Positions 417-58,313 of a stretch of 62,317 nucleotides of DNA are shown piece by piece (the first letter of the stretch is position 1; each line of letters starts with the position of its first letter). This stretch comes from Bacteroidia bacterium (GTDB lineage: Bacteria; Bacteroidota; Bacteroidia; SpSt-205). The DNA lies in assembly GCA_026413325.1 (NCBI GenBank), contig JANZYW010000003.1, positions 1-62,317 on the forward strand, read 5' to 3'. Under the pieces are notes generated by a model. The model saw nothing but the letters and a program-made list of their open reading frames with translations. It had not been told where the DNA came from and made no database searches. The position numbers were made by a program, and so were the translations under genes.

Positions 417-718
417 GCCTGATAAGCCGCTTCGATTTCCTCGGCGGTCTTGCCCTTACGCCAGAGATGGAGCTTTAGAAGTATGCCCTCTCGAGAAAGA
501 AGAGAGCGAACTGTCTCTGTGGGTTGGGCCCCCTTTTTTAGCCAGTATAAAACCCGCTCATGATCAAAACGAATCTCGGCTGGGTGGGTATTTGGGTTAT
601 AAAACCCGAGTTTCTCTATAAAACGGCCATCTCTTGGAGAACGACTATCTGCCGCTACCAGATGAAAGAAAGCATGATGTCTGCGTCCATCTCTGCGCAA
701 ACGGAGTTTCACTGCCAT
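374..718 (-). CDS. rpsP: 30S ribosomal protein S16
   Basis: MAVKLRLRRDGRRHHAFFHLVAADSRSPRDGRFIEKLGFYNP...WLKKGAQPTETVRSLL is the S16 signature. ATG at 718. Confidence 0.97.
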   Translation of the reverse strand: MAVKLRLRRDGRRHHAFFHLVAADSRSPRDGRFIEKLGFYNPNTHPAEIRFDHERVLYWLKKGAQPTETVRSLLSREGILLKLHLWRKGKTAEEIEAAYQAWKSQKTSQTTARS

Positions 719-724
719 GGGGGG

Positions 725-732
725 CAAAGGTA
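725..732 (-). promoter_or_regulatory. Bacteroidota sigma70 -7 element (TACCTTTG) of rpsP
   Basis: Perfect TAnnTTTG, 6 nt before the ATG. Confidence 0.75.
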
Positions 733-785
733 AGAAGATTCCCCGAAAGGGAAAAACTCCGAAAGGAATGAGGACTGTTGCCCAG

Positions 786-1526
786 CTATGAGCGGGGTAA
801 GAACTGGGCAGTGCGGAAGACCCAGCTATTCGTTTCCTCCGGAGCAGCCAAAATAGCCCTTCCTACCACCAGAAAAGCGGGAAACCATCTGCTATCTTCC
901 GAGAGCGTGCCTCCTTGTGCTCCCAATCCCGGGACTAAAAGCCAGTCTTCTGGACAAAGCGAGCGAAAAAATCCCATGTCTGCAGCATGATGGGCTCCCC
1001 ACACCCATCCAATCGTAGCCGAGGCGTCTTTCGGTCGCTCCCGTATGATCGAGGGCCAAATCGTTTCTTGCCAGGGAGGACATTCCGTAGTGCGGAGAAG
1101 AACAAATACCCACTTCCCTCCCCAGCTCCAGAAAGGCTGCAAGGCTTCCCATCCCATATACGGATGTACAGTTATGGCATCAAACGATAAATCCTCAAAA
1201 AAGGCTCGAGCATAGGCCTTACTGGTATAAGCGATATCCCCTCGCTTTGCATCTGCGATGGCCAAGGCTTCGGAAGGAAGCGCTTGCCGAAGTCGGCGCA
1301 AAAGACCCCACCCCGCTTCCCCCCACTGCTCATAAAAGGCGGTATTCAGCTTGTAGGCGATGGCCTGCGAACTCGTTATGTCGATTACTTCTCGAAGGTA
1401 TCTCTCTATCTGCGATAGTCCTCCCTTCCATACTGAAGGGGGAAGCGCTTCTGGAGCTGGGTCAAGCGCCACACACAATAAACTCCTTTTAGCTTGAGCC
1501 AGCTGATACACCTCGCCTGGGCTCAC
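786..1526 (-). CDS. pyrF: Orotidine-5'-phosphate decarboxylase
   Basis: LCVALDP, AYKLNTAFYE, IADAKRGDI (DxKxxDI), DAITVHPYMG and LLVPGLGAQGG motifs. Confidence 0.93.
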   Translation of the reverse strand: MSPGEVYQLAQAKRSLLCVALDPAPEALPPSVWKGGLSQIERYLREVIDITSSQAIAYKLNTAFYEQWGEAGWGLLRRLRQALPSEALAIADAKRGDIAYTSKAYARAFFEDLSFDAITVHPYMGWEALQPFWSWGGKWVFVLLRTTECPPWQETIWPSIIRERPKDASATIGWVWGAHHAADMGFFRSLCPEDWLLVPGLGAQGGTLSEDSRWFPAFLVVGRAILAAPEETNSWVFRTAQFLPRS

Positions 1527-2158
1527 CGCAGATCGATTATTTGTACGCCTGGATGCTGCTTTACATCAAAAACAAAGGCAGAATCCGGAATAGGCTGAGT
1601 ATCATAAGATTTGAGTTCATATTCGACGACCGTCCCATCTCGATGAGAGATCCGCATACGCTGAGGAAGCTCTGTCTGCGCATCTATCCATACTTCCACA
1701 CGGAAGTAATCGGTCGTATCGCTAATGGGGAAAAGTGACACCTTATGAACAGTTCTTCCCTTGTATGTCTCGGTACGATCGTGACGTACTTTCATGTCCT
1801 GATCATAGATCCGAAATACTCGCTCGAGACTGAATCCCTCTTTTGGGTCATACGTAGAAACGTTGACCTCTTTTTCTTTCTTGAGAAACTGCCAGACTGT
1901 TTTGCCATCGGAGAGGATAGCAATATCTCCCAGATCCACTGCGAAGCGATTTTTCTTAGGGTGATACCGAAGTGTACCGGTGCGACTGATGCGTTTCTGA
2001 GTAGTATCGGCCCGATTCTCTACTACGTACGTAAACTGAACTGTCATGTACTCCATTGATTTCAGCTTCTTCCGTGAGCGGCGGACAAGATCGTTGGCTC
2101 TTGGATCCACCTGAGCGAGGAGGATTCCGATACAAGCACCTTTCCAAAGCCAAGTCAT
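1523..2158 (-). CDS. lolA: Outer-membrane lipoprotein carrier LolA family protein
   Basis: Signal peptide, SDGKTVWQF...EVNV and C-terminal FVFDVKQHPGVQIIDLR, typical of Bacteroidota LolA-like proteins. TATCTTTG at 2163-2170 is 4 nt upstream. Confidence 0.8.
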   Translation of the reverse strand: MTWLWKGACIGILLAQVDPRANDLVRRSRKKLKSMEYMTVQFTYVVENRADTTQKRISRTGTLRYHPKKNRFAVDLGDIAILSDGKTVWQFLKKEKEVNVSTYDPKEGFSLERVFRIYDQDMKVRHDRTETYKGRTVHKVSLFPISDTTDYFRVEVWIDAQTELPQRMRISHRDGTVVEYELKSYDTQPIPDSAFVFDVKQHPGVQIIDLR

Positions 2159-2245
2159 CGCTCAAAGATACGATGAGCCCAAAGGTCTCTGCCCTTAGGT
2201 TTCTTTCTCCCGATTGCCCACCGGCTCGCTTACTCACCCCGAGGC

Positions 2246-3951: not shown

Positions 3952-5097
3952 TCAGACCCGTTGGAGGGCAGATTGGAGATCTATTATGAGGTCCTCACTA
4001 TCCTCGATACCCACCGAAAGACGCAAGAGACCTGGCGTGATACCCAAGGTACGCCGCTCCTCTTCTGGGATAGAAGCATGCGTCATCGTAGCGGGGTGGT
4101 TCACCAGGGACTCTACCCCTCCTAAACTCTCCGCCAGAGTAAATACCTGTAAAGATTCCCAAAATCCACGCAGATCTTCTGGGTCCTGGACTGGAATCTC
4201 AAAAGACACCATCCCTCCCGGAAGGCGCATCTGCTGTTTTGCCAAAAGATATTGGGGGTGGGTCAAAAGCCCAGGATAGTACACTCGAGCCACTTTGGGG
4301 TGAGTAGCCAAAAACTCTGCCACTTTCTGAGCATTTTCACAGTGTTTCTGCATCCGCAGAGGCAACGTTTTGATACCCCTCAGCACGAGAAAACAGTCCA
4401 TAGGTCCTGGGACTGCCCCTACCGCATTTTGTAGAAAGCGAAGGCGATGATAATCCTCTTCCCGATTAAGCATAATAGCCCCCATCACAACATCAGAATG
4501 CCCACCCAGGTATTTGGTGGCAGAATGGACGACGATATCTGCCTCCATCTCTAATGGATTTTGAAGGTAGGGAGTGGCAAACGTATTATCCACAACAAGC
4601 TTTGCCCCCCGCTGATGGGCCACATCTGCCAGTGCAGGGATAGGCGAAACATGCAAGAGGGGATTGCTGGGTGTCTCTACCCACAGCAGGCGGGTTTCAG
4701 GCCGAAATGCCGATTCTACCTGCGCCACATCCGTCGTATCCACAAAGTCAAAGCTTAGCCCCCAGGGCTCAAAGACTCGACGCATGATCCGATACGTCCC
4801 TCCATACAAATCTCGGCTGACGAGCACATGGTCGCCAGGAGAGAGAAGGCGCAAGACTGCATCTGTCGCAGCTAAACCAGATGCGAAAGCTAATGCATAC
4901 GAAGCCCCCTCCAGTTGAGCCAACGCCATCTCCAAAGCCGTTCGAGTGGGGTTATGGGTACGGCTGTATTCATATCCCTTATGAACCCCAGGGGCTTCTT
5001 GGGCATACGTAGAAGTGAAGTATACGGGCACCATCACCGCTCCTGTAAGCGGATCCGGCTCTGTCCCCGCATGAACTGCCAGTGTGTGCCATTTCAC
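3952..5097 (-). CDS. Cystathionine gamma-synthase/gamma-lyase (PLP-dependent trans-sulfuration enzyme)
   Basis: YEYSRTHNPT, ETPSNP, VDNTFATP, HSATKYLGGHSD (PLP lysine), AESLGGVESL and LLRLSVGIED. Confidence 0.93.
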   Translation of the reverse strand: MKWHTLAVHAGTEPDPLTGAVMVPVYFTSTYAQEAPGVHKGYEYSRTHNPTRTALEMALAQLEGASYALAFASGLAATDAVLRLLSPGDHVLVSRDLYGGTYRIMRRVFEPWGLSFDFVDTTDVAQVESAFRPETRLLWVETPSNPLLHVSPIPALADVAHQRGAKLVVDNTFATPYLQNPLEMEADIVVHSATKYLGGHSDVVMGAIMLNREEDYHRLRFLQNAVGAVPGPMDCFLVLRGIKTLPLRMQKHCENAQKVAEFLATHPKVARVYYPGLLTHPQYLLAKQQMRLPGGMVSFEIPVQDPEDLRGFWESLQVFTLAESLGGVESLVNHPATMTHASIPEEERRTLGITPGLLRLSVGIEDSEDLIIDLQSALQRV

Positions 5098-5191
5098 GGG
5101 TACAAAGGTAGAATCTCAGACACTAAGGCCCCATCTTTCTTGCCCCAAACACAGCATGCGATTTCAAGAACATCACCCAAAGACTGTCAAC

Positions 5192-6388
5192 CTATACTCG
5201 AGTTATGATACTTCTCGTTTCCATAGCGCGCGCTCGCGCCTCTGCCGAAAAGTAATACCGAAAAGTAGCATGGACCTTGCTACGACGAGCCTGCGTAGCC
5301 TCTAACACTGCCAGCATCGCAGGGTTAAAGTCCCCTACCCAGCTGAGTTCTGCATGCGTGATGCCCATTTTCAAGGCAGAAGGTATCGGCAGATAAGCAA
5401 GGGCCGACTCTAACCCCCTGCGCTGATACCGAGGACGAACTCCCATGAGCATCACGCGAGCGCGAGTGAGGATACCCCGATGTCGATACCATGCATACTT
5501 ATTGCGCTTCCTCCATAGAAAGGTAAGCAACTGCCACAGATTAGGCTTGCCCCGCCAGGGACGAAAAATCTGATTAAGGTCAGGCAGGGCTAAAATCACC
5601 CCCGCCGGATCCCCATCCACATACGCAAAAAATATCATCTCTTCTATGAGTACAGGACGCAGCCCCTCCACCAACCGAAGCACTCTTTCTTCCGTAAGGG
5701 GTACAAAATGCTCATGAAAGCGCCACGCATCATTGTAAATCTGCATAAAGTCTAAGGCATATTTGCGGAGATGAGCTAAATCAGGATGGGCAAAAGAAAC
5801 CCCCTCTCTTTGAGCAGCTCGCAGAGCAATACGAACGATGCGATCAGGGATCTCTCGCAGATCTAACTCACGAGACTCTTGACGAAAATACACCTCGAAC
5901 CCATATCGTTCTAAAAACTCTGCATAATACGGCTTATTGTACGGCATGCCATAAGAAGGCGGACTATCAAAACCTTCTATCAGCACTCCCCAGAAGCGGT
6001 CATTTTCCCCAAAATTGATACAAGCATCCGCTGCCTCCATACCCCGGTCAGCAAGCCATGCCTGCGCGGTAGACAGTAAGTCCTCTGCGACCGAATAGTC
6101 TTCTATACATTCAAAGAAGCCTATCCCCCCAGTAGGTACGATATACTTCTGAGCCTTAGGATAATAAATGAAGGCGGCAATACGGCCCACCACTTGCCCC
6201 TTGGGAGTGGAGGCGACCCACCACTGGGCCTCTCCTGCTGAAAAATGCGGATTCTTCCGAGGATCAAAAAGGGCCCTGAGCTCCATATCCAAGGGACCCA
6301 CCCAATGAGGATCTCCTCGATAGAGCGTCCGTGGTAAGTCTAAAAAGGCAGCTTTATGAGCAGCAGTCGTAGCGGGAACTACTGGCAT
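5192..6388 (-). CDS. GNAT-fold protein (YghO-like)
   Basis: VVGRIAAF, GGIGFFEC, GVLIEGF, MPYNKPYY, LPDLNQ, MGVRPRYQRRGLE (acetyl-CoA-binding-like) and ELSWV. Confidence 0.7.
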   Translation of the reverse strand: MPVVPATTAAHKAAFLDLPRTLYRGDPHWVGPLDMELRALFDPRKNPHFSAGEAQWWVASTPKGQVVGRIAAFIYYPKAQKYIVPTGGIGFFECIEDYSVAEDLLSTAQAWLADRGMEAADACINFGENDRFWGVLIEGFDSPPSYGMPYNKPYYAEFLERYGFEVYFRQESRELDLREIPDRIVRIALRAAQREGVSFAHPDLAHLRKYALDFMQIYNDAWRFHEHFVPLTEERVLRLVEGLRPVLIEEMIFFAYVDGDPAGVILALPDLNQIFRPWRGKPNLWQLLTFLWRKRNKYAWYRHRGILTRARVMLMGVRPRYQRRGLESALAYLPIPSALKMGITHAELSWVGDFNPAMLAVLEATQARRSKVHATFRYYFSAEARARAMETRSIITRV

Positions 6389-6400
6389 GTAAAGACAAAG

Positions 6401-7351
6401 TTAGCGATGCCGCCTGGCAGAAGATACCTGCCAAAAGCGCCTGTCCCATCGACCTTCGATCCGTTCTTCTACCGAATCGGGTAAAGCCGCATAAAAATCG
6501 ATACCTGTTATCTTTTCTACTGAATCGACTCTCACCAGAAAGTCTACCGGACTCTTGCGAGAAGCTGCATGAGGCACCAAAAAAGCTACCGCTTGAGGGG
6601 CTTTTTCATCCTCTAACCAATACACAACCTTATAGAAAGCAGTAGGAACGGTCACTCGATTGAGACCGATTGCGTCTTTGTTTTTGTCTAAAACAGGGCC
6701 GGTGTACACCACGAGCCGCTTTTTTTCCCTTGCCCAGCGCCGAACCGTACTTTCTACCTCCTCCCAGATACCCGCATTGAACTCATGAAGCTGAGGACTC
6801 ATGTTAGAGAGATAAAAAGTTTCACTCATTCCCACAGAGTCCCACTTGAAATCTCCCGCCGGTACGAGATGCCCTCTGTCGTATCCCGAACGCCGATAGT
6901 CCTCAAGCTGGGCCGACCCCGTAGTGACATACGGATCAGGACGAAAATCCTGTGTACGAGCTACTCGCCCAGCCGATAACCTCTTCCCCTCCAGTATATG
7001 CACAGTCCATCGAGCCTGCTCGTGATGCTCATCATAACAAAGCACGTAGTAGCGGTGCCGGACCCGTACGCAGCCAGGAAACTCTGCATAGGCAAGTTCC
7101 AGCGCAATATAGTCCGACAAATGCTTCTCTTCTTTCGCTGCTATCTTTGAAAGGGGTTTCTCAGACACACCTTCTCCGCGATTCGCTACGGAGGAAGGAC
7201 CAGCTGTTCTCTCTGTAGAGGGCGAGAGAGTGTCCACTTCAGGCATGGAAGGAGAAGAAGCAGACACAGAGGGAGGCGTCATTTTGTGTAGCCATAACCA
7301 CATGGCTGCCCCCACCAACCCCAAGAGGAACACGATAAGGAAAGGACGCAC
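6401..7351 (-). CDS. DNA/RNA non-specific endonuclease (NucA/EndoG family), membrane-anchored
   Basis: SGYDRGHL active-site motif, ETFYLSNMSPQ and N-terminal hydrophobic anchor. Confidence 0.92.
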   Translation of the reverse strand: MRPFLIVFLLGLVGAAMWLWLHKMTPPSVSASSPSMPEVDTLSPSTERTAGPSSVANRGEGVSEKPLSKIAAKEEKHLSDYIALELAYAEFPGCVRVRHRYYVLCYDEHHEQARWTVHILEGKRLSAGRVARTQDFRPDPYVTTGSAQLEDYRRSGYDRGHLVPAGDFKWDSVGMSETFYLSNMSPQLHEFNAGIWEEVESTVRRWAREKKRLVVYTGPVLDKNKDAIGLNRVTVPTAFYKVVYWLEDEKAPQAVAFLVPHAASRKSPVDFLVRVDSVEKITGIDFYAALPDSVEERIEGRWDRRFWQVSSARRHR

Positions 7352-7368
7352 TCTACAAAGGTATCCTC

Positions 7369-8094
7369 TTATTCCCGCAACCCTACTGTCCTCAGAAGTC
7401 CCGGAGCGAAGTCACGGCTACACATGTAGACAGTTCCAGTGTGCAAAACCACCTTATACCGCCCTGAAAACCAGGTGAGGACCTCTTGTATCGCTTCGCT
7501 ATTTACGATAGCGTCCCGAGCGATCCGAATAAAAGGAGGATGAGGAAGCTTTTCTTCTACCTGCTGGAGCGTATAGGCACGAGTGGTATGCACCTCCCCA
7601 GAACGCGTCTCGATATAAAGGGTTCTATCTTCTATACGAACCCCCACGATGTCAGTGCAAGACAAAATGAGATGGCCTTCTTTCTGCGGGATAGGAAGGC
7701 GCATACTGCCTCCGCCCCCTTCTCGCATGACTTGGACTCGACGCTGAGCTCGAGCCAGGGCTTGACGCAGTCGGTCCAGAGAAAAAGGTTTGAGAAGGTA
7801 ATCTACAGCTCCTCCCTCAAAAGCCTTAACGGCATGCTCCGCATAAGCCGTCGTGAATATAACAGCAGGGGGATGGGGAAGGCTTGCAGCAAAATGCATA
7901 AGAGAAACGCCATCAACCCCCGGCATCTCAATATCCAGGAGGACGATATCCCAGCTCTCTTCTTGCAACCGCTGCAAAGCCGACTCTCCATCCACCGCTT
8001 CCTTTACCTGCATATCCCCTATCTGAGCCAGGTACCGCTGAAGAAGCCGACGAGCCGGTTCTTCATCCTCCACGACCAAAACGCGCCATGCCAT
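7369..8094 (-). CDS. LytTR-family DNA-binding response regulator
   Basis: REC domain (VVEDE, LLDIEMP, FTTAY, DYLLKP) plus LytTR domain (FIRIARDAIVN). Confidence 0.92.
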   Translation of the reverse strand: MAWRVLVVEDEEPARRLLQRYLAQIGDMQVKEAVDGESALQRLQEESWDIVLLDIEMPGVDGVSLMHFAASLPHPPAVIFTTAYAEHAVKAFEGGAVDYLLKPFSLDRLRQALARAQRRVQVMREGGGGSMRLPIPQKEGHLILSCTDIVGVRIEDRTLYIETRSGEVHTTRAYTLQQVEEKLPHPPFIRIARDAIVNSEAIQEVLTWFSGRYKVVLHTGTVYMCSRDFAPGLLRTVGLRE

Positions 8095-8105
8095 CTACGC
8101 CAATA

Positions 8106-8672
8106 TTAGGATTTTTCTGGGGATTCTACACGGCCCACTGCCATCAACCACCCTTCCCCATGGAAAAAAGCCAAACCAATCTCACAGCTACCCCCTGATT
8201 TCATAGAAACAACTCTCTCTCCAAGAAATAATAAATCATGCCTAAATGACAAACTGTCAAATTTAGAGGATAAAATCTTGTAAGCAACCTCTTTAGAGCA
8301 CCATACTTTCCATATTGAAATGTTTTCATTCATAAATCTCTCCTTTTCAGATGGATGCATAAAATACTCGCATACCCCCGCAGGAAAAGGACGCAGGCGC
8401 TCAATGTCTATAGCTACTGGATAGGGCGCAGAGATGGCGGCTGCCCAAGGGTAGCTATGGGAAAGAGAATAAAAGCCAGAAGAGGAGAGCATAGCTCGAG
8501 CCGCCCGGGCAGCGAGAGACTCTTTCCTCCGACGCTCGTGCGTAATCTGCCCGATATGGGCGGCCTCTTCTGCAGAAAGTCTTGAGAGATCCCACAACTG
8601 CTCTTCGGACTCCGCGATTTTCCACACAGCCCATTCTGCCTCGTCCCAACTTCCCCTGTATATTAGAGGCAT
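8106..8672 (-). CDS. 4'-phosphopantetheinyl transferase family protein
   Basis: SLSHS, VAIDIE and WCSKEVAYK motifs of Sfp-type PPTases. Confidence 0.85.
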   Translation of the reverse strand: MPLIYRGSWDEAEWAVWKIAESEEQLWDLSRLSAEEAAHIGQITHERRRKESLAARAARAMLSSSGFYSLSHSYPWAAAISAPYPVAIDIERLRPFPAGVCEYFMHPSEKERFMNENISIWKVWCSKEVAYKILSSKFDSLSFRHDLLFLGERVVSMKSGGSCEIGLAFFHGEGWLMAVGRVESPEKS

Positions 8673-9102
8673 GCAGCGAAGATGGCACTTTCTCCTGGCC
8701 CATCCTCTCGAACCCAGCCAAGAATCTGCGCTTCGGACCTATCTTACCCATCACCTCCGAGAATGGAAAACCCACGGACGCCCCATCAGCTGGAATTTGC
8801 AGTTTCCGTACCAGCATTTCATCGAGATTACTGCCTACGGCCCTGTGTCAGGATGCGCCACAGATACGCTGTTTCGTACAGTACAAGAAGCCTCTCAAAT
8901 CTGCCACATACCCCTTCTGAAGACAGAGTGGATAGCAGTCGTAAAAGAAGGAAAAGTTTTTGTAAAAAAGTTTTATGAAATAATAAAAGAATATAGTCTC
9001 AATCAGTGGGATCCCACCTGGCAAATTTTAGAGCCTTCGGAGGAGGGTATCCAACCTGTATCACTGACCGAGAGCCGTTTAGCTATCCACTTGTCCAAAT
9101 GA
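8671..9102 (+). CDS. Conserved hypothetical Bacteroidota protein
   Basis: WKTHG and VSGCATD resemble the WxAHG/SGCSID motifs of an uncharacterised Bacteroidota family. Its stop overlaps the next ATG. Confidence 0.6.
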   Translation: MQRRWHFLLAHPLEPSQESALRTYLTHHLREWKTHGRPISWNLQFPYQHFIEITAYGPVSGCATDTLFRTVQEASQICHIPLLKTEWIAVVKEGKVFVKKFYEIIKEYSLNQWDPTWQILEPSEEGIQPVSLTESRLAIHLSK

Positions 9103-13857: not shown

Positions 13858-14033
13858 GGGGCAATACTACAAAAAACCCTGTTATCTCCTTTTTTCCCTA
13901 TGGTACATTCCCAATAGGATAGATAGGTGGAAAACAGAGGATTTATATACAGATCGCTTCCCTTTCCTTTCTGTGACTGGGGAAAAGTCCGACAAACAAG
14001 AAATCTCTTCGAGAGCCTATCTTTATCGATACA

Positions 14034-45475: not shown

Positions 45476-46888
45476 TCAATGAATAATGGAAACCTGGAAA
45501 GCTGCTCGCCCCAGTTCGCTTTGTACCCGAAGCAGATAGGTCCCCGCCGAAATATCCTGGACATCCACCACGACTTGAGCCTCTCCGGCGGGTATAGAAT
45601 GCACAGGCCAGCTTTTCACAAAGCGGCCATCCAGCGTGTATAGACTTAGCTGGAGCGAGCAGGAACCTTCACTCTGTAACTTTAGGTGGAAACAGTCAGT
45701 GGTGGGGTTGGGATAAGGGGTCATGAAATGCTGCCTATCACCTCTGATCCAAGTGCCCGTGGTAACATCCTGAGAATACACAATCGGGAAAAGCACCCAG
45801 TTGAGGCCGTTTTTCAAGGGAGGATTATAAGCGACGTGTGTGGGTATCCAGTTAGGCCAGGTAGGTACCAAACCAGACGGCAAAGAATAAAAATCACCCG
45901 ATACCGTATCATAAATAGCCCAGGAAATGAGGCTACGACCGATCCGAGTGGTATCTCCATTGTAGCAAGGATGCGTAGCAGGATTGAAACCTGTATTAGC
46001 GGGTCCGTACAAGAAATACAAAGTATCGGATAAAGTGAAGGAGTTTACATTATATCGCTCAGTACTCAACGCTACATAATACGAAGTAGAGTCCGTTACA
46101 TCTACCGGTGTAGGGAAATACACAAAATCAAAGACCTCTGTTATGCTGGGATTACTCCCCTGCGGGGGAGGACAGTTTGGACCACTATCCCCCAAAATGG
46201 CGTTCCCAATCCGCACATCTGAAAGCGGTTTAGAAACCGTACGAACAGCTGTCGAGGCAGGCACGGTACCCGACCGAGAAGGGCTGTAAAAAGGAGACCC
46301 CCATGTATATGACTGAGAGGCATGTAGGCTGTAAATGAGGGAGTATTCACCGTCTCCATTGTCAGGGACAGGAGCGGCAGTAGTAGGGCTACATGGGTTG
46401 GCAGCAAAATTCACTATCCAGGCGGCTATACCTTTGATGGTCACAGTGCGATTGGTACCTCCCAGATCAGGAGCGATATCATATCGCTCCGCGATAGCCC
46501 CATCTATGTATGCGCACCAGCCGTTGGCCTGGCTTACGGTACCTATTTTGAAACGCTCATTCGAAACAGCGATATAAGCCCCCACCGATTCAAGTGAGTC
46601 AAAGAAAGTACCTACACATGCCGCAGGAGGATTGCTGCGGGTATTGGGTCCTGTTCCGTTACTCAGAAGTGTATCCCCTGCATAGTTCGGATCGTTGGTC
46701 GGGGTTGGGACGATCCTGTAGTCTTGATTAGGGAGAAGCCAGGGGAGACTCTGGGTCCGTAGTTGGGAAGGAACTGTTAGAGGGCGCAAAGCGGGATATC
46801 TAATTGAAGCAGGGAGGGTAAATCCCGCTCCGATTTGCTGAGCCCAAATAAGGGCTGCCAAGCCAGCAGAAAAAAGTATTCGTGACAT
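45476..46888 (-). CDS. T9SS type A sorting-domain secreted protein of unknown function
   Basis: Signal peptide (IWA|Q), Cys/Pro/Thr-rich body and CTD PYPNPT...GTYLLRV...QVSIIH. Confidence 0.8.
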   Translation of the reverse strand: MSRILFSAGLAALIWAQQIGAGFTLPASIRYPALRPLTVPSQLRTQSLPWLLPNQDYRIVPTPTNDPNYAGDTLLSNGTGPNTRSNPPAACVGTFFDSLESVGAYIAVSNERFKIGTVSQANGWCAYIDGAIAERYDIAPDLGGTNRTVTIKGIAAWIVNFAANPCSPTTAAPVPDNGDGEYSLIYSLHASQSYTWGSPFYSPSRSGTVPASTAVRTVSKPLSDVRIGNAILGDSGPNCPPPQGSNPSITEVFDFVYFPTPVDVTDSTSYYVALSTERYNVNSFTLSDTLYFLYGPANTGFNPATHPCYNGDTTRIGRSLISWAIYDTVSGDFYSLPSGLVPTWPNWIPTHVAYNPPLKNGLNWVLFPIVYSQDVTTGTWIRGDRQHFMTPYPNPTTDCFHLKLQSEGSCSLQLSLYTLDGRFVKSWPVHSIPAGEAQVVVDVQDISAGTYLLRVQSELGRAAFQVSIIH

Positions 46889-47786
46889 ATCGCAGCAAAT
46901 GTACTGAAATTACATTCACTATATATATTGCATGCGATAAGTTGGAAAGTTCCAATGTTGAAAAACTGTGTAGCATCGCTACTTTCTATCTGCGACAGAG
47001 AGGGGTAGCTCAAAAACCCATAGCTGCAGTAGAGGTTTTTCCCACCTGGACACCATTTAGGTACACCTTCTGACTGCACGGAAAGACCATCAAGCCTGTC
47101 TATCCATCCCCCCTCCACTCGAGAGCGCAAGAGGGGAGTGGACTCTGCCATAGCGATATCTGGGCAGAAGGGAGTATTCTCGGGAGATATAGTGCACCAC
47201 TTCTACTGGACACTACCACTTCTCCCCGATCAGTTCCTTTTTCTCATATCAATAGCCTATACCGTAGAGTCCTATCGTCGAACTTTACGATGAAAGTATT
47301 CTTCCCCTCCATGGTATCAACCCGTCATAACTACGGAGAAAGCGAGTAACGACTCTGATGAAAGGGTATCCTGTGAGATAGATTCCCACTTCTCCCTTAT
47401 TTTTCTGAGAAAGTAATAGAGTCACTCCTCCCCCCTCCCTCATGGCCCACTGGTGGCTTACAACGAAAACTGCTCATTCCTCCGCCCCTTCAGTTTGTGG
47501 AGGCAGCAGATGAGGTTGTGCTATGAGTAGAACGGGGAAATCCTGGAATCCACTTCGTCCTCTTCCTCGCACAAGGGAGCCTAAGATAATCACAGTCGTA
47601 CCCGTCGCTCCTTTTCCCTCCACGATAGGTGACCCACACGGTAATCCTCCTCTTAGGGGGAACGGACGATGAGCACATTCTACCATCCTCATTTGTAGGG
47701 CATCTAAGGCGGAAAGGCCAGAACAAACTCCGTGGCAGTGGTATACCTCACCGAGGGGGAGAGATATTCTACACTGGCAGCAAGCT

Positions 47787-49697
47787 TCAAAAGGAAAGAC
47801 GAACAAAGAAACTTCTGCCAGGGAAGTCTATGCCCCCAGGCACCCACTGGCGATATAGGCTGAGGTGTGACTGATAACGAGCTCCCAATAGATTCTGTAC
47901 TCCCATACTGAGAGATTTACAGCTGCCAGCGATGTTTACCAAGAAATATCCAGGAGTCCTGACCTCTGTGTTATGGAGTGCATATACACGAAGCTGAGAG
48001 GCATAAAAGAGTACCTCCGGCGTTAGACTCCATGTGCTCCCAGTGACTTGATAGCGAATCTGGAGCCGCAAGGGGGGCATCCGAGGTACGAAGCGATCTT
48101 CTGGATGTTTTGACCGGAGAAATTCTCCTTGTACATAGGACAGGCCTACTATTAGTCCTCTATACTGCCATTCTCCCTCAGCACCGATGAGCCATGCAGC
48201 TCGAACTCCATATGTAAAGACAGCGCCCACAGCCGTGGGCAGCGTATCAGGTAGCCGCTCTACAAATAGATACCGAGGGAAATATTGAACGAAAGGACGC
48301 AGCTCTCCTCCTCTTACTCTGTAAGTCAGCTCTCCAGTCCAAGCCACCTCGGAGGGGAGATTCTTTCGACCCAGCTCATAGCGTTTAGCTCCTTCATGAT
48401 AGCCATTCGCCCATAACTCAGCGGGGTGTGGGATTCGAAAAGAACGGGTTAGTCGAGCAATCCACGTTTTCCTTTCATACGCCAGCTCCGCTGCCCAGTC
48501 CACCAGCGTACGAGGAGAGGCAGCTGTCTCTGCTTTACTTGTCGCTCCGTGCAATCGAGCTCCCATGGCTATGCGACCAAGACCGAGAGCCCAGGCTCGT
48601 CGGAGCCAAACTCCCCCTTCCCCCTGCCATATTCGAGGGAGAAAGGGCGCTTCTCCTCTATCAGTGGTCCGGCGAAAAAAACCTGTTACCCCTCCTTCCC
48701 AGGTTCTCCAACTGTGCGCCATATCCACATCAAGCCGTTGCGTTTCTATACATACTTCGGGTTCGGTCGCATTCTCGCCATATTCCGCCCGTTGGCTCAT
48801 CTGAAGCCCTACCAGGAGGGTCGTCGTGCTTCCCTCCTTATGGGCGTACAGGGTACGCATTTGTCCCCCTGCGGTTGTGATCCGCTGAAAGGGAAGATCT
48901 CGCTGAAAACGCCAAGCTTCCCGTCGGGAAATGAGTCGTTGCTGTGTTTCCGAAAACCACAGCTGTTCTTCTGAATCCCAGATAGGAGAAGGAAGACCGA
49001 TCCCTTCCCGTGAAAAAAATGCTGCGAATTCCACCAGGCCTTGTGCATGGGAAAGCCTCCCAGAGAAAGCGCCATATCCCCCCCGTAAACCTGTATTCCA
49101 CACATACCCTTGTCGAGGGGTATGAAAGTTCTCAGCAGTTCGAACAATCCCTTCCATAAGGAGAAAACGATCGGGTGTGCCCCTTGCGCTTGCGACTTGG
49201 AGCATCCCACCGAGTGGATTGGAATACAGACGAGCCTCCCCCTTCAAGAAAGACCGCTGAGGGATAAGAGGTTGAAAACGCAGCACTCCCCCTATCGCAT
49301 CACTTCCATAGCGAACGCTCTGAGGACCCAACAGGACCTCGGGCTGGAAAGTCATCCAGGTAGGAGGGCTCTCATACCCGTGATCTTCGCCCCAGTAGGC
49401 TCCTTCACGGGGAAGCCCACCGAAGAGCCATAAAACACGGGTGTAGCTATGGCCCCGTAATACGGGCCTTCCCGTCAATGCCCCTGTCTGTATCCAGTCA
49501 ACCCCTGGTGTACTCCGCAGAAGCTCACCCAGTGACAACTCTCCTCCCAAGGCTCCCCGAACCTCTAAAGGCCTTAGCAAGGGCACCCGTTCCGCTTGAA
49601 GGGTCACCGCATCAAGCTCCAAGTACCCAAGAGTATCATCGGGGGAAGTTTGTGCCCAGAGAAGGGTCCCCGTAAGCAGAAAAAAAGCTACTCGCAC
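47787..49697 (-). CDS. TonB-dependent receptor (probably metal uptake)
   Basis: LDAVTL TonB-box-like segment, plug motifs (GRPVLRG, WGEDHG, GPQSVRYGSDAIGGV), ANGYHEG, YQSHLS and C-terminal Phe. Confidence 0.85.
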   Translation of the reverse strand: MRVAFFLLTGTLLWAQTSPDDTLGYLELDAVTLQAERVPLLRPLEVRGALGGELSLGELLRSTPGVDWIQTGALTGRPVLRGHSYTRVLWLFGGLPREGAYWGEDHGYESPPTWMTFQPEVLLGPQSVRYGSDAIGGVLRFQPLIPQRSFLKGEARLYSNPLGGMLQVASARGTPDRFLLMEGIVRTAENFHTPRQGYVWNTGLRGGYGAFSGRLSHAQGLVEFAAFFSREGIGLPSPIWDSEEQLWFSETQQRLISRREAWRFQRDLPFQRITTAGGQMRTLYAHKEGSTTTLLVGLQMSQRAEYGENATEPEVCIETQRLDVDMAHSWRTWEGGVTGFFRRTTDRGEAPFLPRIWQGEGGVWLRRAWALGLGRIAMGARLHGATSKAETAASPRTLVDWAAELAYERKTWIARLTRSFRIPHPAELWANGYHEGAKRYELGRKNLPSEVAWTGELTYRVRGGELRPFVQYFPRYLFVERLPDTLPTAVGAVFTYGVRAAWLIGAEGEWQYRGLIVGLSYVQGEFLRSKHPEDRFVPRMPPLRLQIRYQVTGSTWSLTPEVLFYASQLRVYALHNTEVRTPGYFLVNIAGSCKSLSMGVQNLLGARYQSHLSLYRQWVPGGIDFPGRSFFVRLSF

Positions 49698-49701
49698 AAT
49701 G

Positions 49702-49728
49702 CAAAGTTAGCATAACTTTTTTTATGCT
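49702..49728 (-). promoter_or_regulatory. -7 promoter element with overlapping palindromic operator candidates
   Basis: TAACTTTG (49702-49709) is 4 nt before the GTG. AAAGTTA-gca-TAACTTT and AGCATAA...TTATGCT inverted repeats overlap it. Confidence 0.55.
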
Positions 49729-49930: not shown

Positions 49931-51349
49931 CTACGCCATCTGGCCAGGGGCGCGAAAGAAAGGAACTACATCCCGAACATTCGTCATCCCTGTGAGAAAC
50001 AAGAGTATTCGCTCTAATCCCAATCCGAAGCCACTATGAGGTACAGTGCCGAAGCGACGCGTATCCAGATAGTTCTCATAAGTGAAAAGGTCCATCCCCA
50101 ACTCTTGTATACGGGAAAGAAGATACTCATATCTCTCCTCCCTTTGAGACCCTCCGATTACCTCTCCGATTCGAGGGAAAAGCACATCGAAAGCAGCGAC
50201 GGTCTTCTCATCTGGATTTTGTCGCATGTAAAACGCCTTGATAGCTTTGGGATAGTCATATAGGATAACTGGGCGCTGGGCGTACTCCTCTACGAGATAT
50301 CGTTCATGCTCAGCCTGCAGGTCACTGCCCCAATGAGTAGGGAATTGAAATTCTTTCCCGCTCTTCTGTAAAATCTCTATGGCTTCTGTGTAAGATAGGC
50401 GAAGGAAAGCACTTTCCTTGGCATGCTCCAGCTCTGCTAAAAGAAGAGGTTCGTAGCGTTCTGCAAGAAAGGCTAACTCTTCCGAAAAGTTTCGGAGGGT
50501 GTATCGAATCAAATACTTGAGAAAATCTTCGGCTAAATCCATTGTCATGGAGAGATCATAGAAAGCCATCTCGGGCTCGATCATCCAGAATTCTGCCAAA
50601 TGGCGAGGAGTATGGGAAGGTTCTGCTCGGAACGTAGGACCAAAGGTGTAAATCCGTCCCAACCCCGTAGCTAAGAGCTCTCCTTCTAACTGTCCGCTGA
50701 CCGTGAGGTAAGCGGGCCTTCCGAAGAAATCGTACTCATAAGCAACTCGGCCGTCGGGGTGAGTAGGTATCTGCTGAAGAGGCAAAGTCGTCACCTGAAA
50801 AAGCTGTCCTCCCCCTTCACAATCAGAAGGAGTAAGAATAGGAGTGTGTACATAGACAAAACCCCGTTCCTGAAAGTACTGGTGTATAGCAAAGGAAATC
50901 CCGCTTCGAATCCGAAAAATAGCTTGAAACGTGCGAGTACGTGGCCGAAGATGCGCTATCTCTCTAAGAAACTCTAGTGAGTGTGTTTTTTTTTGGAGAG
51001 GATAGGCCTCTGGATCGGCAGAACCATACAACTCATATCCTTCTGCTACCAGCTCAAACGGCTGAGGTCGCTCGGGAGTAGGAGTCAGTTCCCCCCATAC
51101 CCCTATGCTTGCCCCCGTATGAAGCTCAGATTCAATCCGTTCACGCGGGATTAGGTTGTGGGATAAAACAACCTGCAGAGCTCTCAAAGTAGAACCGTCC
51201 TGAAGTTCTAAGAAACTAACAGCTCGAGTCGTACGCCGGGTACGAACCCATCCCTTCACAGTGAGTTTCTCACCCAAGGGAGGATTCTTGTATAAATCGG
51301 AAAGGGTTTCCCGTAAAATCGGTGCATAGAGTCCAGGAGGCTTCGCCAT
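49931..51349 (-). CDS. asnS: Asparagine--tRNA ligase
   Basis: GWVRT, LTVSGQL, YTFGPTFRAE...RHLAEFWMIEPE, KAFYM, GEVIGGSQRE and PHSGFGLGLER. Confidence 0.96.
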   Translation of the reverse strand: MAKPPGLYAPILRETLSDLYKNPPLGEKLTVKGWVRTRRTTRAVSFLELQDGSTLRALQVVLSHNLIPRERIESELHTGASIGVWGELTPTPERPQPFELVAEGYELYGSADPEAYPLQKKTHSLEFLREIAHLRPRTRTFQAIFRIRSGISFAIHQYFQERGFVYVHTPILTPSDCEGGGQLFQVTTLPLQQIPTHPDGRVAYEYDFFGRPAYLTVSGQLEGELLATGLGRIYTFGPTFRAEPSHTPRHLAEFWMIEPEMAFYDLSMTMDLAEDFLKYLIRYTLRNFSEELAFLAERYEPLLLAELEHAKESAFLRLSYTEAIEILQKSGKEFQFPTHWGSDLQAEHERYLVEEYAQRPVILYDYPKAIKAFYMRQNPDEKTVAAFDVLFPRIGEVIGGSQREERYEYLLSRIQELGMDLFTYENYLDTRRFGTVPHSGFGLGLERILLFLTGMTNVRDVVPFFRAPGQMA

Positions 51350-51419
51350 GAGGCAAAGGTATGGCCTCCCCTTTTATCCCTCATACACGAGACAGAGGGA
51401 TTTTCGATATATTTGAGAC

Positions 51420-51848
51420 GTGTTGATCGATACCCTGAGATATGTCAAACGCTTAGAGGAGGCAGGCTACACCCGTCAGCAGGCGGAAGCCCAAGTTTCA
51501 CTCCTGGTTGAAATCCTATTAGACACTTTGGCAACCCGAGCAGATGTAGAAAATCTCCGTAAAAAAATCGACACCGAAGTAGCTTCCCGCCACGACCTCG
51601 AAACCCTCCAACGAAAAATCGACACTGAAGTAGCCTCCCGCCACGACCTCGAAAATCTCCAAAAAGAAACCGCCAGACAGTCCGCTTTGGAAAAGGTGGA
51701 GAGCGAGATGACCCGCCGCTCTGATTTGGAGGTACTGGAGAGCCGGATCATCATGCGAGTAGGTCGCATGCTCGTAGCAGCCGTTTCGATAACGATAACG
51801 TTAGTAGGGCTCTTGATGACGCTATTTAGATTCCTTTCCCATTCTTGA
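51420..51848 (+). CDS. DUF1640/CCDC90-like coiled-coil protein with C-terminal TM anchor
   Basis: IDTLRYVKRLEEAGYTRQQAEA head, LATRADV neck, repeated neck/coiled-coil units and C-terminal hydrophobic helix. Confidence 0.8.
   Translation: MLIDTLRYVKRLEEAGYTRQQAEAQVSLLVEILLDTLATRADVENLRKKIDTEVASRHDLETLQRKIDTEVASRHDLENLQKETARQSALEKVESEMTRRSDLEVLESRIIMRVGRMLVAAVSITITLVGLLMTLFRFLSHS
51563..51661 (+). repeat. Intragenic 51-bp tandem repeat (about 2 copies)
   Basis: KIDTEVASRHDLE(T/N)LQ repeated; atcgacac starts at 51567 and 51618. Confidence 0.85.
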
Positions 51849-51944
51849 CCCAGTCCCTATCAGATCCGACAGACAGTGCGAAGCTATCCACCTCTCCAAA
51901 AGGCACCTCTTCTTTAGAGAAGACCAAAACCTTATCTTTGTGGC

Positions 51945-53060
51945 ATGCGAACAGGGTACACGGCTCTGGTGCTTTTTTCTCTGACATTTGCGCAAGTCAC
52001 TTTCGATAAAATCGAACACGACTTTGGAGAGATCGTAGAAGGTCCTCCAGCAATCCACACCTTCACCTTTAGAAACACAGGAGACAAACCCGTCAAACTT
52101 ACTTCTGTAAAAGCCTCCTGTGGCTGTACTACACCCAGTTGGACGCAAGAAGAGATCGCTCCTGGAGGGAGCGGGACAGTCCAAGCAGCTTACGACACCA
52201 AAGGACGCCCCGGGAACTTTATCAAGACGATCACCGTACAGCACAGTGCGAGTGAAACCCCCATCGTACTTACTATAAAGGGAGTGGTGAAGGCCTCTAC
52301 CCAGCCCCAAGACAAATACAGCGAAATCGACGGCAGCTTAGCATGGGCTAAACGCCGAGAATCTTTCGGCATGGTTAAGTCTACCGAATCGCCCACTCTC
52401 ACTTTCGAAGTAAAAAACATCGGGCAATCGCCTGTGGAATTTATAGAAGTACTTGAATCTAAACCGATGTTCAAATTTACTTTCTCCCCGAAGATTTTAG
52501 CTCCAGGACAAGAGGGCAAACTAGCCATAACGTTAGACGGTAAAGCTGCCCGCTCTGCAGGATGGAAGCATCAATCTGGGTTTTATGAGGTCCTAAAGAT
52601 ACGTACCAGTGATCCAGTAAGTGCGGAAAAGCAGCTTGTGGTCAATGGGAGCTATGAGATCGTATATTCCGCAGAGGAGTTAGCCAAGGCTCCCAAAGCG
52701 GTCTTCCCTGTCACAGAGTTCGATGGAGGAGAAGTGTTAGAGGGACAAACGGTTGAGTACCGTTTTGTCATACGGAACGAGGGGAAAAGTGACCTTACCA
52801 TCGAGAGTGTCAAAGCATCCTGTGGCTGCACAGCAGTCGAACCCACCGAAAAAGTCCTGAAACCCGGCCAAAGCACCGAGATCGTCGCTCGTTTTGATTC
52901 CCGCGGGCGACTGGGGCAGCAGCACAAAACCATCACTGTAGAAACAAACGACCCTGTCAATGGACGGGCCATCCTCCATCTCAAGGCTAATGTGGTAGCG
53001 GCTGCTGGCTTCGGGATAGGGGGGAGTGCCCCTGTCAATACGGCTACTTCTGGCTATTGA
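51945..53060 (+). CDS. DUF1573 (Ig-like) repeat protein
   Basis: HDFG...FTFRNTG...VKASCGCT in two clear copies plus a degenerate middle copy; signal peptide. Confidence 0.88.
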   Translation: MRTGYTALVLFSLTFAQVTFDKIEHDFGEIVEGPPAIHTFTFRNTGDKPVKLTSVKASCGCTTPSWTQEEIAPGGSGTVQAAYDTKGRPGNFIKTITVQHSASETPIVLTIKGVVKASTQPQDKYSEIDGSLAWAKRRESFGMVKSTESPTLTFEVKNIGQSPVEFIEVLESKPMFKFTFSPKILAPGQEGKLAITLDGKAARSAGWKHQSGFYEVLKIRTSDPVSAEKQLVVNGSYEIVYSAEELAKAPKAVFPVTEFDGGEVLEGQTVEYRFVIRNEGKSDLTIESVKASCGCTAVEPTEKVLKPGQSTEIVARFDSRGRLGQQHKTITVETNDPVNGRAILHLKANVVAAAGFGIGGSAPVNTATSGY

Positions 53061-55914: not shown

Positions 55915-56019
55915 AATAAACTAACCTCTCTGGCTCTTCTCTGCAATCTCTATAATCGGCTTGAGTAGGGCATACTTCCTGTATGCAAGTCAGCAGGTAG
56001 GCTTCCAACAAAGAGCCAG

Positions 56020-56688
56020 TCAGAAGTACAGCTTGCCTCTCTTTAGCGGTTCATCTTGATACCACATCACAACGTGTGTCTCTTCTATACCCGCAATAAA
56101 TCCTGCCTTTCGAAGCTCCCGGACAAAGCCATATCTGTACCGTTCATCTGCACAGGCTAAATCCCATAAGGTCCAGAATACCTCCGTATCCTCGACAGCC
56201 AACCAAAATAGCTTTGAATGACAGCTTTCAAGATAATCCTCTAAGCATTCTGGCGTGTCGGGAGATAGACCTGTTTGGAGCTCCCACGATACTTCTTCAA
56301 CATACCCTCGGAAAAGACCTTCTTCATTTCCATTCTCCCGCTCGTATCGGGCCTTTGCTATGAAGGTCGAGAGGTTCTCTTGAGCATAGGCTTCGCCTTC
56401 AGCGGCGGCAAAATCTTGGATCTCGTGTATGAGATACCCCGGAAGAGGAATATTCCGCCTTATTAGGTACTTCACCATAGCTGCCTCGACTTCAGCCTTA
56501 TTACAGGTGCGCTTTTCTAGCAAAAACCAGAAGGGAAGCTTTCCTTTCACGGCAAAGTATCGTCCCAATCGCCTACCAAACGCTTGAAGAGCCTCGATTT
56601 CGTCCTCATCGATCATCCAGAAAGCTTTCCGACTGAGTTTTCGTTGCCCGAAGCTGGAACCCTTGGATTTTTCTTCGTCTGCTTTCAT
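56020..56688 (-). CDS. Hypothetical protein
   Basis: 222-aa acidic ORF with no recognised motif. It is preceded by a Shine-Dalgarno-like AGGGA. Confidence 0.5.
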   Translation of the reverse strand: MKADEEKSKGSSFGQRKLSRKAFWMIDEDEIEALQAFGRRLGRYFAVKGKLPFWFLLEKRTCNKAEVEAAMVKYLIRRNIPLPGYLIHEIQDFAAAEGEAYAQENLSTFIAKARYERENGNEEGLFRGYVEEVSWELQTGLSPDTPECLEDYLESCHSKLFWLAVEDTEVFWTLWDLACADERYRYGFVRELRKAGFIAGIEETHVVMWYQDEPLKRGKLYF

Positions 56689-57191
56689 ATGCTTATCCCT
56701 TTTTTTCCGATGATGAATACGCCATCAGGGCTATTTTTGCATCTTTGCATCTATAATGACAAGTAGAAATGTTCATAAAAAGGGGAAAAGTACCAAGTGC
56801 CGGATCAGATGACCCGCTAAGACTTCTCGGGCATTAACTCCGCTGGGTAAGCTCCATCCCGATATGCACCTTGAAAAGACAAGGAAGCGAAATCTTATCA
56901 ACCCAAAACTAAGCCTATCTCCCCACAGTTTGGAGAATTTCTCTCCCATAAAACAACCGGGCCCTTTCCCCATGGCCCTCAGGAAGAGACGAGTATTCGA
57001 TAGGCCATTCGACAAGGTAGTCGCATAGATACAAAATGGCCGCTTTCTACCAGTGTAGGCTATGCATTATTCCGCACAGGGACCTCTCAATCTCTTTCTC
57101 TTAGTTTCTTCTCCAGAGAGCCGTTCAGAGAAAGTAAGAAAGGATAAAGAGCTGATTCACTTTCACCCCCGCGGACAATGTAATAATATGC

Positions 57192-58142
57192 TCAAATTCC
57201 TACTTCATCGAACGGATCATCCACAAGCTGCTGCTGAAGCCCCCATCTAAATCGGTAGTATTGTAGCCGAGCACGTATCCTCCCAGCAAGAGTATGCGGA
57301 AGCATGAGATGCCGCTCATAGGCTGTATTAGGCTGCATACACAGCGGTCCTTTCCCCTTTCTCCAGCGCTGAAGGGGAAGGTAACTCGTCCAGTTGCCTT
57401 TTCGAGTATGGGTGGCTAAAGGATGCGCATGACCCAGATTTCGGACGAGATTCTGCTCAGGAATGACACATAACTGTCCCTCCCGCAAAAGAAGGTAGCT
57501 CAGCTGATAATCCCAGGTATCGATTGCGCCCGAGGTGACCCCCGCCATCGCCTTCCATAAAAACCGTACGTATGAGCGAAGGGAGCCCACCCGATTTTCC
57601 AAGAGAGCTGAGTCCTTCAGTTCTTCCCACCCTACCGGCTCTGCTTGATAGGTAGACCAAACCCGCTGCCAAGTGCCCCATCCCCATATAAAAGGTATCC
57701 GAATAAAGTCCCACCCTGAGCTCAACTGAGAGAAACCGGGCTGAAGCTGCGTCCCACTCACCATACCGACCCGCGAATCATCCGCATATCGAGCAAGCAT
57801 CTCATGCATGTAGGTGAAGAAAGAAGGATGGGGAAGCGTATCATCCTCTAAAATTATCCCAGCCTTCACATGAGAAAAGAACCAGGTAATCCCTCCTGAT
57901 ACAGCTCGCTTGCATCCTTCATTTTCGGAAAGAAAATTAAAATAGGCATCACAGGGCCAATCTATCTGAGATTGTACAAACTTTCTGACTGCCTCTGTCC
58001 GAAGAACATCTTCTGGAGCGGACTTGGGCCCATCTGCACTGATGAAAAGAATACGAGGCTTAACCCGCCGAAGTACATCCCAAACCCTCTTGAGCGTATC
58101 CAATCGATTATACACCAGGAGAAGGACAGGCTCTGCTGCCAT
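57192..58142 (-). CDS. Glycosyltransferase (GT-A, nucleotide-diphospho-sugar transferase)
   Basis: PVLLLVYNR, SADGP, GIILEDD (DxD-like), IWGWGTW and DTWDYQ. Start likely ATG 58142. Confidence 0.88.
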   Translation of the reverse strand: MAAEPVLLLVYNRLDTLKRVWDVLRRVKPRILFISADGPKSAPEDVLRTEAVRKFVQSQIDWPCDAYFNFLSENEGCKRAVSGGITWFFSHVKAGIILEDDTLPHPSFFTYMHEMLARYADDSRVGMVSGTQLQPGFSQLSSGWDFIRIPFIWGWGTWQRVWSTYQAEPVGWEELKDSALLENRVGSLRSYVRFLWKAMAGVTSGAIDTWDYQLSYLLLREGQLCVIPEQNLVRNLGHAHPLATHTRKGNWTSYLPLQRWRKGKGPLCMQPNTAYERHLMLPHTLAGRIRARLQYYRFRWGLQQQLVDDPFDEVGI

Positions 58143-58313
58143 ATAGGACGCAAAAATAGAACGCCTTCTATGGGAACAAACCAAAAGAGACTTCAGACCA
58201 TATTCTCGCAAAACTGCCCCCTCATGGAAAAGAACCCGCTCCTAAGCCACCGGTATGCTGTCGCTCTTGGGTATGAGGAATCTCCCCTCCGCTCTTACCC
58301 TGCAGAAATGATC

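Follow-up and report, generated by a model that had tools for sequence, protein, structure and literature searches.

Promoter boxes abutting start codons point to leaderless transcription in a family of Bacteroidota

In an uncultured bacterium of the class Bacteroidia (Bacteroidota; lineage SpSt-205; assembly GCA_026413325.1), the promoter box TAnnTTTG stands so close to start codons, most often 4 nucleotides (nt) away, that the messenger RNAs (mRNAs) behind it are probably leaderless or nearly leaderless, in this genome and across its family; we put the probability of this reading at about 0.8. The pattern was noticed in a contig of 62,317 nt (JANZYW010000003.1, or C69), here called the window, which is part of an assembly of 2.19 Mb in 135 contigs with 51% G+C (genome G000). 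The motif and its spacing, the distribution of both over the genome and the family, the link to the need for a promoter and the conservation of the arrangement are direct observations. The initial annotation of the window had proposed an initiation regime dominated by leaderless mRNAs, and every sequence-level test that was run supports this interpretation.

Spacing between the box and the start codon

The genome holds 1341 perfect TAnnTTTG boxes. An ATG follows the box at a spacer (the distance between its final G and the start codon) of 4 nt in 180 cases, of 5 nt in 91, 6 nt in 50, 7 nt in 60 and 8 nt in 45, compared with 13–30 cases at each of the control spacers from 9 to 79 nt; 159 of the 180 ATGs at spacer 4 open frames of at least 100 codons, against 0–15 at spacers 9–79. 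In a genome-wide set of 1795 stop-to-stop open reading frames (ORFs), in-frame starts at spacers 3, 4, 5, 6, 7 and 8 number 31, 218, 95, 50, 58 and 35, respectively, while the reversed motif yields 0–10 per spacer. Enrichment at these spacers extends to five variants with one mismatch, most strongly TAnnTTCG (35 at spacer 4 against 2.7 expected), followed by TTnnTTTG, CAnnTTTG, TAnnTTTA and TAnnTTAG. Overall, a perfect box lies 3–8 nt before an in-frame ATG or GTG in 472 of the 1795 ORFs, a number that rises to 662 when enriched variants are included (the motif-linked genes, each with a 'module' of box, spacer and start); at control spacers 33–38 these figures are 54 and 131. Genome-wide enrichment at 4–5 nt, the lack of which the initial annotation had named as fatal to its interpretation, is thus clearly present.

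The reading of the spacers relies on published promoter geometry. Baez et al. (2019) place the −7 element at −12 to −5, with the transcription start site (TSS) 4–5 nt past the G (PMC6847099), and Guerin et al. (2021) report the same geometry, likewise with 4–5 nt from G to TSS (PMC9723704), in keeping with the premise of the initial annotation that transcription starts a few nt after the final G. Combined with a spacer of 4 nt, the mode, this geometry would put +1 on the A or G of the start codon itself, so that RNA polymerase would begin on the first base of ATG or GTG; at spacers of 5–8 nt, transcription would start 1–4 nt before the codon. Start codons at spacer 4 are purine-initial (154 ATG, 63 GTG and a single TTG), as expected if the first base of the codon is the initiating purine. 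GTG accounts for 29% of the starts at spacer 4 and declines to 9% at spacer 8, and a purine peak appears at G+5/G+6 in the spacer-7 and spacer-8 classes, the position at which their TSS would be expected. By this geometry no more than 0–4 transcribed nt precede the codon, which leaves no transcribed ribosome-binding site. The ribosome would thus presumably initiate on a 5′-terminal AUG or GUG, without a Shine–Dalgarno (SD) sequence and without the A-rich leader of other Bacteroidota.

Modules in the window

Both strands of the window together contain 49 perfect matches to TANNTTTG, whereas 100 dinucleotide-preserving shuffles gave a mean of 27.7 (standard deviation 4.9, maximum 40). When each site is printed with its flanks, all 18 genes listed in the initial annotation as directly preceded by a perfect TAnnTTTG have the claimed spacer and start codon. 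The six one-mismatch sites named there (nrdB, TAtT, the exonuclease, A2M, LytTR and ORF 8671) are also in place, and two further sites were found, at 14034 (TATCTTTA, spacer 8) and 15477 (TATATTCG, spacer 7). A module precedes 22 of the 47 window ORFs of at least 90 codons in a crude ORF table, with rpmG and DUF2752 as two more; about 13 other ORFs overlap the upstream stop codon or begin within 13 nt of it, and short leaders are seen in a few, for example at 61469, where the box lies 19 nt upstream. The proposed reassignment of starts relative to the longest ORF applies at 718, 16969, 21217, 22852, 58142 and 15477. The modules, a tRNA promoter and one contrast case are as follows.

716..732, minus strand: rpsP (S16), TACCTTTG, spacer 6, ATG 718; module in 18 of 18 order genomes
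2156..2170, minus strand: LolA-like, TATCTTTG, spacer 4, ATG 2158
5095..5110, minus strand: Cys/Met pyridoxal-phosphate (PLP) enzyme, TACCTTTG, spacer 5, GTG 5097
6386..6403, minus strand: 398-residue protein without Pfam match, TAACTTTG, spacer 7, ATG 6388
7349..7363, minus strand: Endonuclease_NS, TACCTTTG, spacer 4, GTG 7351
8092..8108, minus strand: LytTR response regulator, TAATATTG (one mismatch), spacer 6, ATG 8094
8659..8673, plus strand: ORF 8671, TATATTAG (one mismatch), spacer 4, ATG
13855..13869, minus strand: TAtT (TRAP T-component), TAGTATTG (one mismatch), spacer 4, ATG 13857
14622..14635, plus strand: RNase_T exonuclease, TACCTTCG (one-mismatch enriched variant), spacer 3, ATG 14633
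16809..16823, minus strand: rpmG (L33), TACTTTTG, spacer 4, ATG 16811
16957..16971, plus strand: ABC ATPase, TACCTTTG, spacer 4, ATG 16969; longest-ORF start GTG 16864
18776..18791, plus strand: DUF2752, TATCTTTG, spacer 5, ATG 18789
21071..21086, minus strand: TetR regulator, TATCTTTG, spacer 5, GTG 21073
21205..21219, plus strand: 402-residue protein without Pfam match ('GAF' in the initial annotation), TACCTTTG, spacer 4, GTG 21217; longest-ORF start ATG 21157
22581..22597, plus strand: tRNA-Ile, first of a tRNA-Ile/tRNA-Ala pair, TACCTTTG 8 nt 5′ of the mature end at 22597
22838..22854, plus strand: 1075-residue BamB-like/HflX-like protein, TATATTTG, spacer 6, ATG 22852
34280..34293, minus strand: alpha-2-macroglobulin (A2M), TACCTTTA (one-mismatch enriched variant), spacer 3, ATG 34282
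34325..34342, plus strand: Peptidase_M43 protein, TAAGTTTG, spacer 7, ATG 34340
45048..45062, minus strand: nrdB (ribonucleotide reductase (RNR) small chain), TAACTTCG (one-mismatch enriched variant), spacer 4, ATG 45050
46886..46903, minus strand: protein with T9SS sorting domain, TACATTTG, spacer 7, ATG 46888
49695..49709, minus strand: TonB-dependent receptor, TAACTTTG, spacer 4, GTG 49697
51347..51361, minus strand: asnS, TACCTTTG, spacer 4, ATG 51349; module in 16 of 16 family genomes with a match
51408..51422, plus strand: CCDC90-like (DUF1640), TATATTTG, spacer 4, GTG 51420; back to back with asnS
51933..51947, plus strand: DUF1573 protein, TATCTTTG, spacer 4, ATG 51945
58140..58158, minus strand: 316-residue protein without Pfam match, TATTTTTG, spacer 8, ATG 58142; longest-ORF start TTG 58211
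61467..61496, minus strand: TPR/CHAT protein, contrast case with a short leader, TATCTTTG 19 nt 5′ of ATG 61469

The start codons of asnS and the CCDC90-like gene are only 70 nt apart (51349–51420). Most gene names of the initial annotation were borne out by Pfam (S16, LolA, Endonuclease_NS, L33, ABC, TonB receptor, class-II tRNA ligase, DUF1573, RNR small chain, TAtT, RNase_T, A2M and LytTR). For the 'GAF protein' (21217) Pfam gave no match at E ≤ 1e-5, and 'DUF1640' (PF07798) scores 30 bits, under its 33.5-bit cut-off. The ORF at 22852–26079 (plus strand, 1075 residues) combines an N-terminal BamB/PQQ-like beta-propeller with C-terminal HflX-type GTPase domains in Pfam (GTP-bdg_N, GTP-bdg_M, MMR_HSR1), an unusual fusion if it is a single gene.

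The box follows the need for a promoter

Within TAnnTTTG, G is depleted at both n positions (0.09 and 0.04), and the revised published consensus reads TAHHTTTG (PMC6847099). The box is taken to be the −7 element recognized by the primary sigma factor of Bacteroidota (sigma-A, sigma-ABfr). It also occurs where nothing is translated, before transfer RNA (tRNA) and ribosomal RNA (rRNA) genes. A perfect box lies 4–16 nt 5′ of the mature end in 27 of the 44 tRNAs genome-wide, most of the remainder being downstream members of clusters or carrying the TTCG variant, and the rRNA operons of two genomes of the same genus, G009 and G011, have two tandem boxes 5′ of the 16S gene. Read by eye, these tandem promoters take the form TTGCAAATG...TACCTTTG, about 100–250 nt 5′ of 16S. 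In G009 the 16S–23S spacer is only 124 nt long and contains no tRNA; in the window, the tRNA-Ile/tRNA-Ala pair (22597–22758) stands alone behind its own box. The tRNA genes have almost no 5′ leader; for tRNA-Ser(tga) on contig C43 the spacer is 4, and its primary transcript may start at the mature +1.

The frequency of the module depends strongly on gene context. Among 624 co-directional genes starting no more than 10 nt from the upstream stop codon, 4% have a perfect module and 8% a module with variants included, the latter being the control level. At gaps of 11–50 nt these values rise to 42% and 55%. For the 460 genes with a divergently transcribed upstream neighbour they reach 49% (224) and 62% (284), against 5% (21) and 8% (36) in the control. 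The motif thus follows the need for a promoter and not the need for translation. The claim that most first-in-operon mRNAs are of this kind is roughly correct, though only just, since the divergent genes span 49% with perfect boxes to 62% with variants. In 92 divergent pairs both sides carry a module, and their start codons lie a median of 79 nt apart (5th percentile 28 nt). A second perfect box 14–120 nt upstream is found for only 10 of the 472 genes with a perfect module, where chance would give about 3%.

Conservation of adjacency and its phylogenetic reach

The arrangement is maintained while the surrounding sequence turns over. For rpsP, every one of the 18 genomes of the order has the box 5–7 nt before the ATG, and the DNA 5′ of the box cannot be aligned. 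All 16 family genomes with an asnS match carry TAC[CT]TTTG before the gene, at 4 nt in 13 genomes, 5 nt in one and 7 nt in two. The start position of AsnS varies by 0–12 codons within the family and its N-terminal peptide is not conserved; the box follows the start each time. In 44 other metagenome-assembled genomes, most of them labelled as Bacteroidales or Bacteroidetes, asnS has the box 15–83 nt upstream or lacks it, and the only asnS with spacer 4 among them belongs to a relative of 72% identity. Of the modules shared by G000 and G023, a genome of the family's other genus, only 15 of 55 keep both spacer and start position. It is the adjacency that is conserved and not the sequence.

To delimit the trait, the pattern TANNTTTGNNNNATG was counted forwards and backwards. 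It occurs 180 times in G000 against 23 backwards. The family's 16 other genomes, of which 13 belong to the same genus and three to a second, have 137–223 occurrences each, against 2–18 backwards. The sister family is represented by a single genome, G013, with counts of 55 and 41. Among 400 other Bacteroidota sampled at ≥90% completeness (100 of the same class and 300 of other classes), none comes near the level of the family; excess matches per Mb, read off the table, are about 72 in G000, 43 in G122 and at most about 28 in the rest. Family f47, from another class, shows ratios of up to about 8 but only 28–53 matches per genome. G122, with 128 matches against 33, was considered as a second lineage and could not be confirmed: in 163 kb, only two of six matches open at least 100 codons.

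Two further comparisons were made. The share of perfect boxes lying 4–8 nt before the nearest long-ORF start is 35% in G000 and 33% in 400 kb of G023, compared with 8% (9 of 111) in G013, counted on the unbiased contigs C2–C21, and 4.8%, 3.1% and 4.0% in sampled stretches of G122, G035 and G051. Homologues of the motif-linked genes of G000 have a perfect box at 3–8 nt in 55 of 69 cases in G023, 6 of 31 in G013, 1 of 20 in G035, none of 10 in G122 and none of 27 in G051. The sister-family genome represents an intermediate state; its rpsP has a box at 7 nt, and its asnS is of the ordinary type, A-rich upstream and without such a box. The description of the pattern as unusual for the phylum holds against the figures given in three published transcriptomes, the 400 sampled genomes and homologues in four other genomes.

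Operon-internal genes and the translation machinery

Genes inside operons present a different picture. Overlap with the upstream stop codon amounts to 4 nt at 202 of the 617 internal starts and to 1 nt at 35; that a third of internal genes overlap in this way (ATGA) fits translational coupling. No SD sequence is apparent at the 617 starts (SD-like 4-mers number 66 at −18 to −4 against 96 in the control window), nor is there an A-rich 'Kozak-like' signal, the information content at −25 to −2 being no higher than 0.06 bit. TTG serves as the start codon in 33 of the 617. Internal genes thus have neither box nor SD. Motif-linked starts are followed by a second codon whose first base is C-rich (0.43), internal starts by one in which it is A-rich (0.45), a difference that may reflect the initial transcribed sequence, leaderless translation or protein class.

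Since G000 lacks an assembled 16S gene, the anti-SD was taken from G009 and G011, where 16S rRNA ends in ...GGATTACCTCCTTT and CCUCC is kept. S1 is present in G000 at 510 bits, under the 577-bit equivalog cut-off like 12 of 14 control genomes, and IF3 is present as well. A search for bS21 (PF01165) found none in G000, and its loss was considered as a trait accompanying the regime. This was rejected: the protein is present in all 17 other genomes of the order, so that the blank in G000 is read as an assembly gap, and in 147 of 151 genomes of the class (a tally in which one unpublished genome, G492, is counted without bearing on any conclusion). In bS1, IF3, bS21 and the anti-SD, no loss is seen that could account for the regime.

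Weighing the explanations

One alternative is that the start codons are mis-assigned, with true starts downstream and ordinary Bacteroidota leaders of 20–40 nt; in 215 of the 472 cases the chosen start is indeed not the most upstream in-frame candidate. However, chance ATGs or GTGs would neither peak at one offset nor lie in frame with long ORFs as they do at spacer 4. S16 begins MAVKLRL, and in 17 of 18 order genomes it aligns from residue 1 onward; compared with homologues from four other genomes, motif-linked genes have start offsets centred on 0 (small offsets are favoured when the nearest ATG is taken, yet an offset of exactly 0 still requires an ATG at that place); and AsnS has no internal methionine in its first 40 residues to serve as a later start. 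We regard wholesale mis-assignment as very improbable. A signal-peptide-like periodicity of T follows the ATG, with T at the second codon position peaking from codon 4. The idea that former leaders became coding sequence, suggested by AsnS being 7–11 codons longer than in other Bacteroidales, is not general, given that homologue offsets centre on 0. An even more remote explanation is that UAnnUUUG acts in the RNA of leadered mRNAs, as a ribosome-binding or stability element and not as a promoter. The motif does sit where a ribosome-binding site would, and Bacteroidota are described as using non-SD signals (PMC6028130). Against this, its frequency is at the control level (8%) before the 624 tightly packed internal genes, which need translation signals and not promoters, whereas it does precede tRNA and rRNA genes and matches the sigma-A consensus down to the depletion of G.

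Several points weigh against leaderless initiation. Escherichia coli translates 5′-terminal GUG and mRNAs with leaders of 1–4 nt poorly, so the ribosome here would need to act more like that of mycobacteria. No −33 element is seen in fixed register, with no informative column in the −30s; a TTG about 18 nt 5′ of the box was seen by eye at the rRNA promoters, and a −33 motif is likewise reported as not evident in Flavobacterium johnsoniae (PMC6847099). A pyrimidine before the start codon was considered as a mark of the TSS and rejected, as it is equally common at operon-internal starts. The gene set comes from a crude ORF caller. Among divergent genes, 38% lack a module, and 58 of these have a perfect box 9–60 nt upstream, so leadered mRNAs exist too. 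Finally, 360 of the 662 motif-linked genes lie behind a co-directional neighbour from which transcription could read through, about a quarter of them less than 20 nt from its stop codon. The boxes might therefore be real promoters while most protein is made from leadered transcripts that start farther upstream, leaderless mRNAs being minor in vivo. We think this unlikely, though less far-fetched than the two explanations above: half of the genes with divergent neighbours, which are immune to read-through, carry the module, a second upstream box is rare, and the adjacency of box and start is conserved in two genera. Promoters that deliver leaderless or near-leaderless mRNAs remain the preferred explanation.

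Going further, it is conceivable, though we hold this only tentatively and at somewhat less than even odds, that the family has nearly abandoned loading of ribosomes on leaders in favour of 5′-terminal AUG or GUG or of coupling, a change that would have arisen recently, at the level of the family, in a phylum already free of SD, with selection keeping the promoter glued to a moving start. If so, the family would offer a natural experiment in which an SD-less leadered system turned leaderless, with a ribosome that accepts 5′-GUG and leaders of 1–4 nt while keeping bS1, IF3, bS21 and the anti-SD.

Comparison with known systems

Bacteroidota are the textbook case of leadered mRNAs translated without SD pairing. 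In the published transcriptomes, 3.7% of 5′ untranslated regions (5′-UTRs) are shorter than 10 nt in Bacteroides thetaiotaomicron (PMC7366714), 5.5% of transcripts are given as leaderless in Flavobacterium psychrophilum (PMC9723704) and 87% of leaders exceed 10 nt in F. johnsoniae (PMC6847099), with median leaders of 24–32 nt across the three (PMC7366714, PMC9723704, PMC6847099). GeneMarkS-2 assigns 408 of 450 Bacteroidetes/Chlorobi genomes to its leadered, non-SD group B (PMC6028130). The A-rich motif on leaders of about 20–30 nt that is typical of that group is not what we find here, where boxes lie 4–8 nt and not 20–40 nt from starts. Zheng et al. (2011), scanning for Pribnow-like boxes only, report leaderless genes in one of 37 Bacteroidetes/Chlorobi genomes (PMC3160421). 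No prior description of a leaderless-rich lineage of Bacteroidota was found in the open full-text literature, subscription papers and Table S4 of GeneMarkS-2 lying outside this coverage.

With just 4–13% short or absent leaders in the three transcriptomes, as reported, a clade with at least half of its transcription units apparently leaderless implies that initiation regimes are able to change inside one phylum, here with a divergent sigma-ABfr promoter and while bS1, IF3, bS21 and the anti-SD look unchanged. There are practical consequences as well: gene callers tuned to ribosome-binding sites or to the longest ORF will misplace starts for which the promoter box is the best predictor, regulation through the 5′-UTR (riboswitches, small-RNA pairing at the ribosome-binding site) has little room on these genes, and divergent genes can be as close as about 30–80 nt.

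Leaderless transcription is a known phenomenon; the setting is new, with a sigma-ABfr box, a leadered and SD-less phylum, an origin at the level of the family and no SD internally. Among the nearest known systems, B. thetaiotaomicron, F. johnsoniae and F. psychrophilum share the sigma-A −7 box, the avoidance of G within it and the disuse of SD, the anti-SD being kept here too in G009 and G011; they differ in that only 3.7–5.5% of their transcripts, by the published counts, are leaderless or have leaders under 10 nt, whereas 35% of boxes here lie 4–8 nt from a long-ORF start. Another is GeneMarkS-2 group C (Actinobacteria, Deinococcus-Thermus), for which 25–50% of operons are predicted to be leaderless (PMC6028130). 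Members such as Mycobacterium tuberculosis have, as here, a −10-type element at a fixed short distance before the starts of first genes, and the leaderless share here, 49–62% of promoter-needing genes, is comparable to or above the 25–50% of operons given for that group. Unlike group C, the family uses the Bacteroidota TAnnTTTG with G at −5 in place of a Pribnow box, its internal starts show no SD where the remaining genes of group C are described as using one, and the phylum in which its trait arose is otherwise placed in group B. Archaeal group D resembles the family in that most operons are leaderless and the box stands at a fixed distance from the start (PMC6028130), but it relies on unrelated machinery, an archaeal TATA box at about −26 and archaeal initiation factors.

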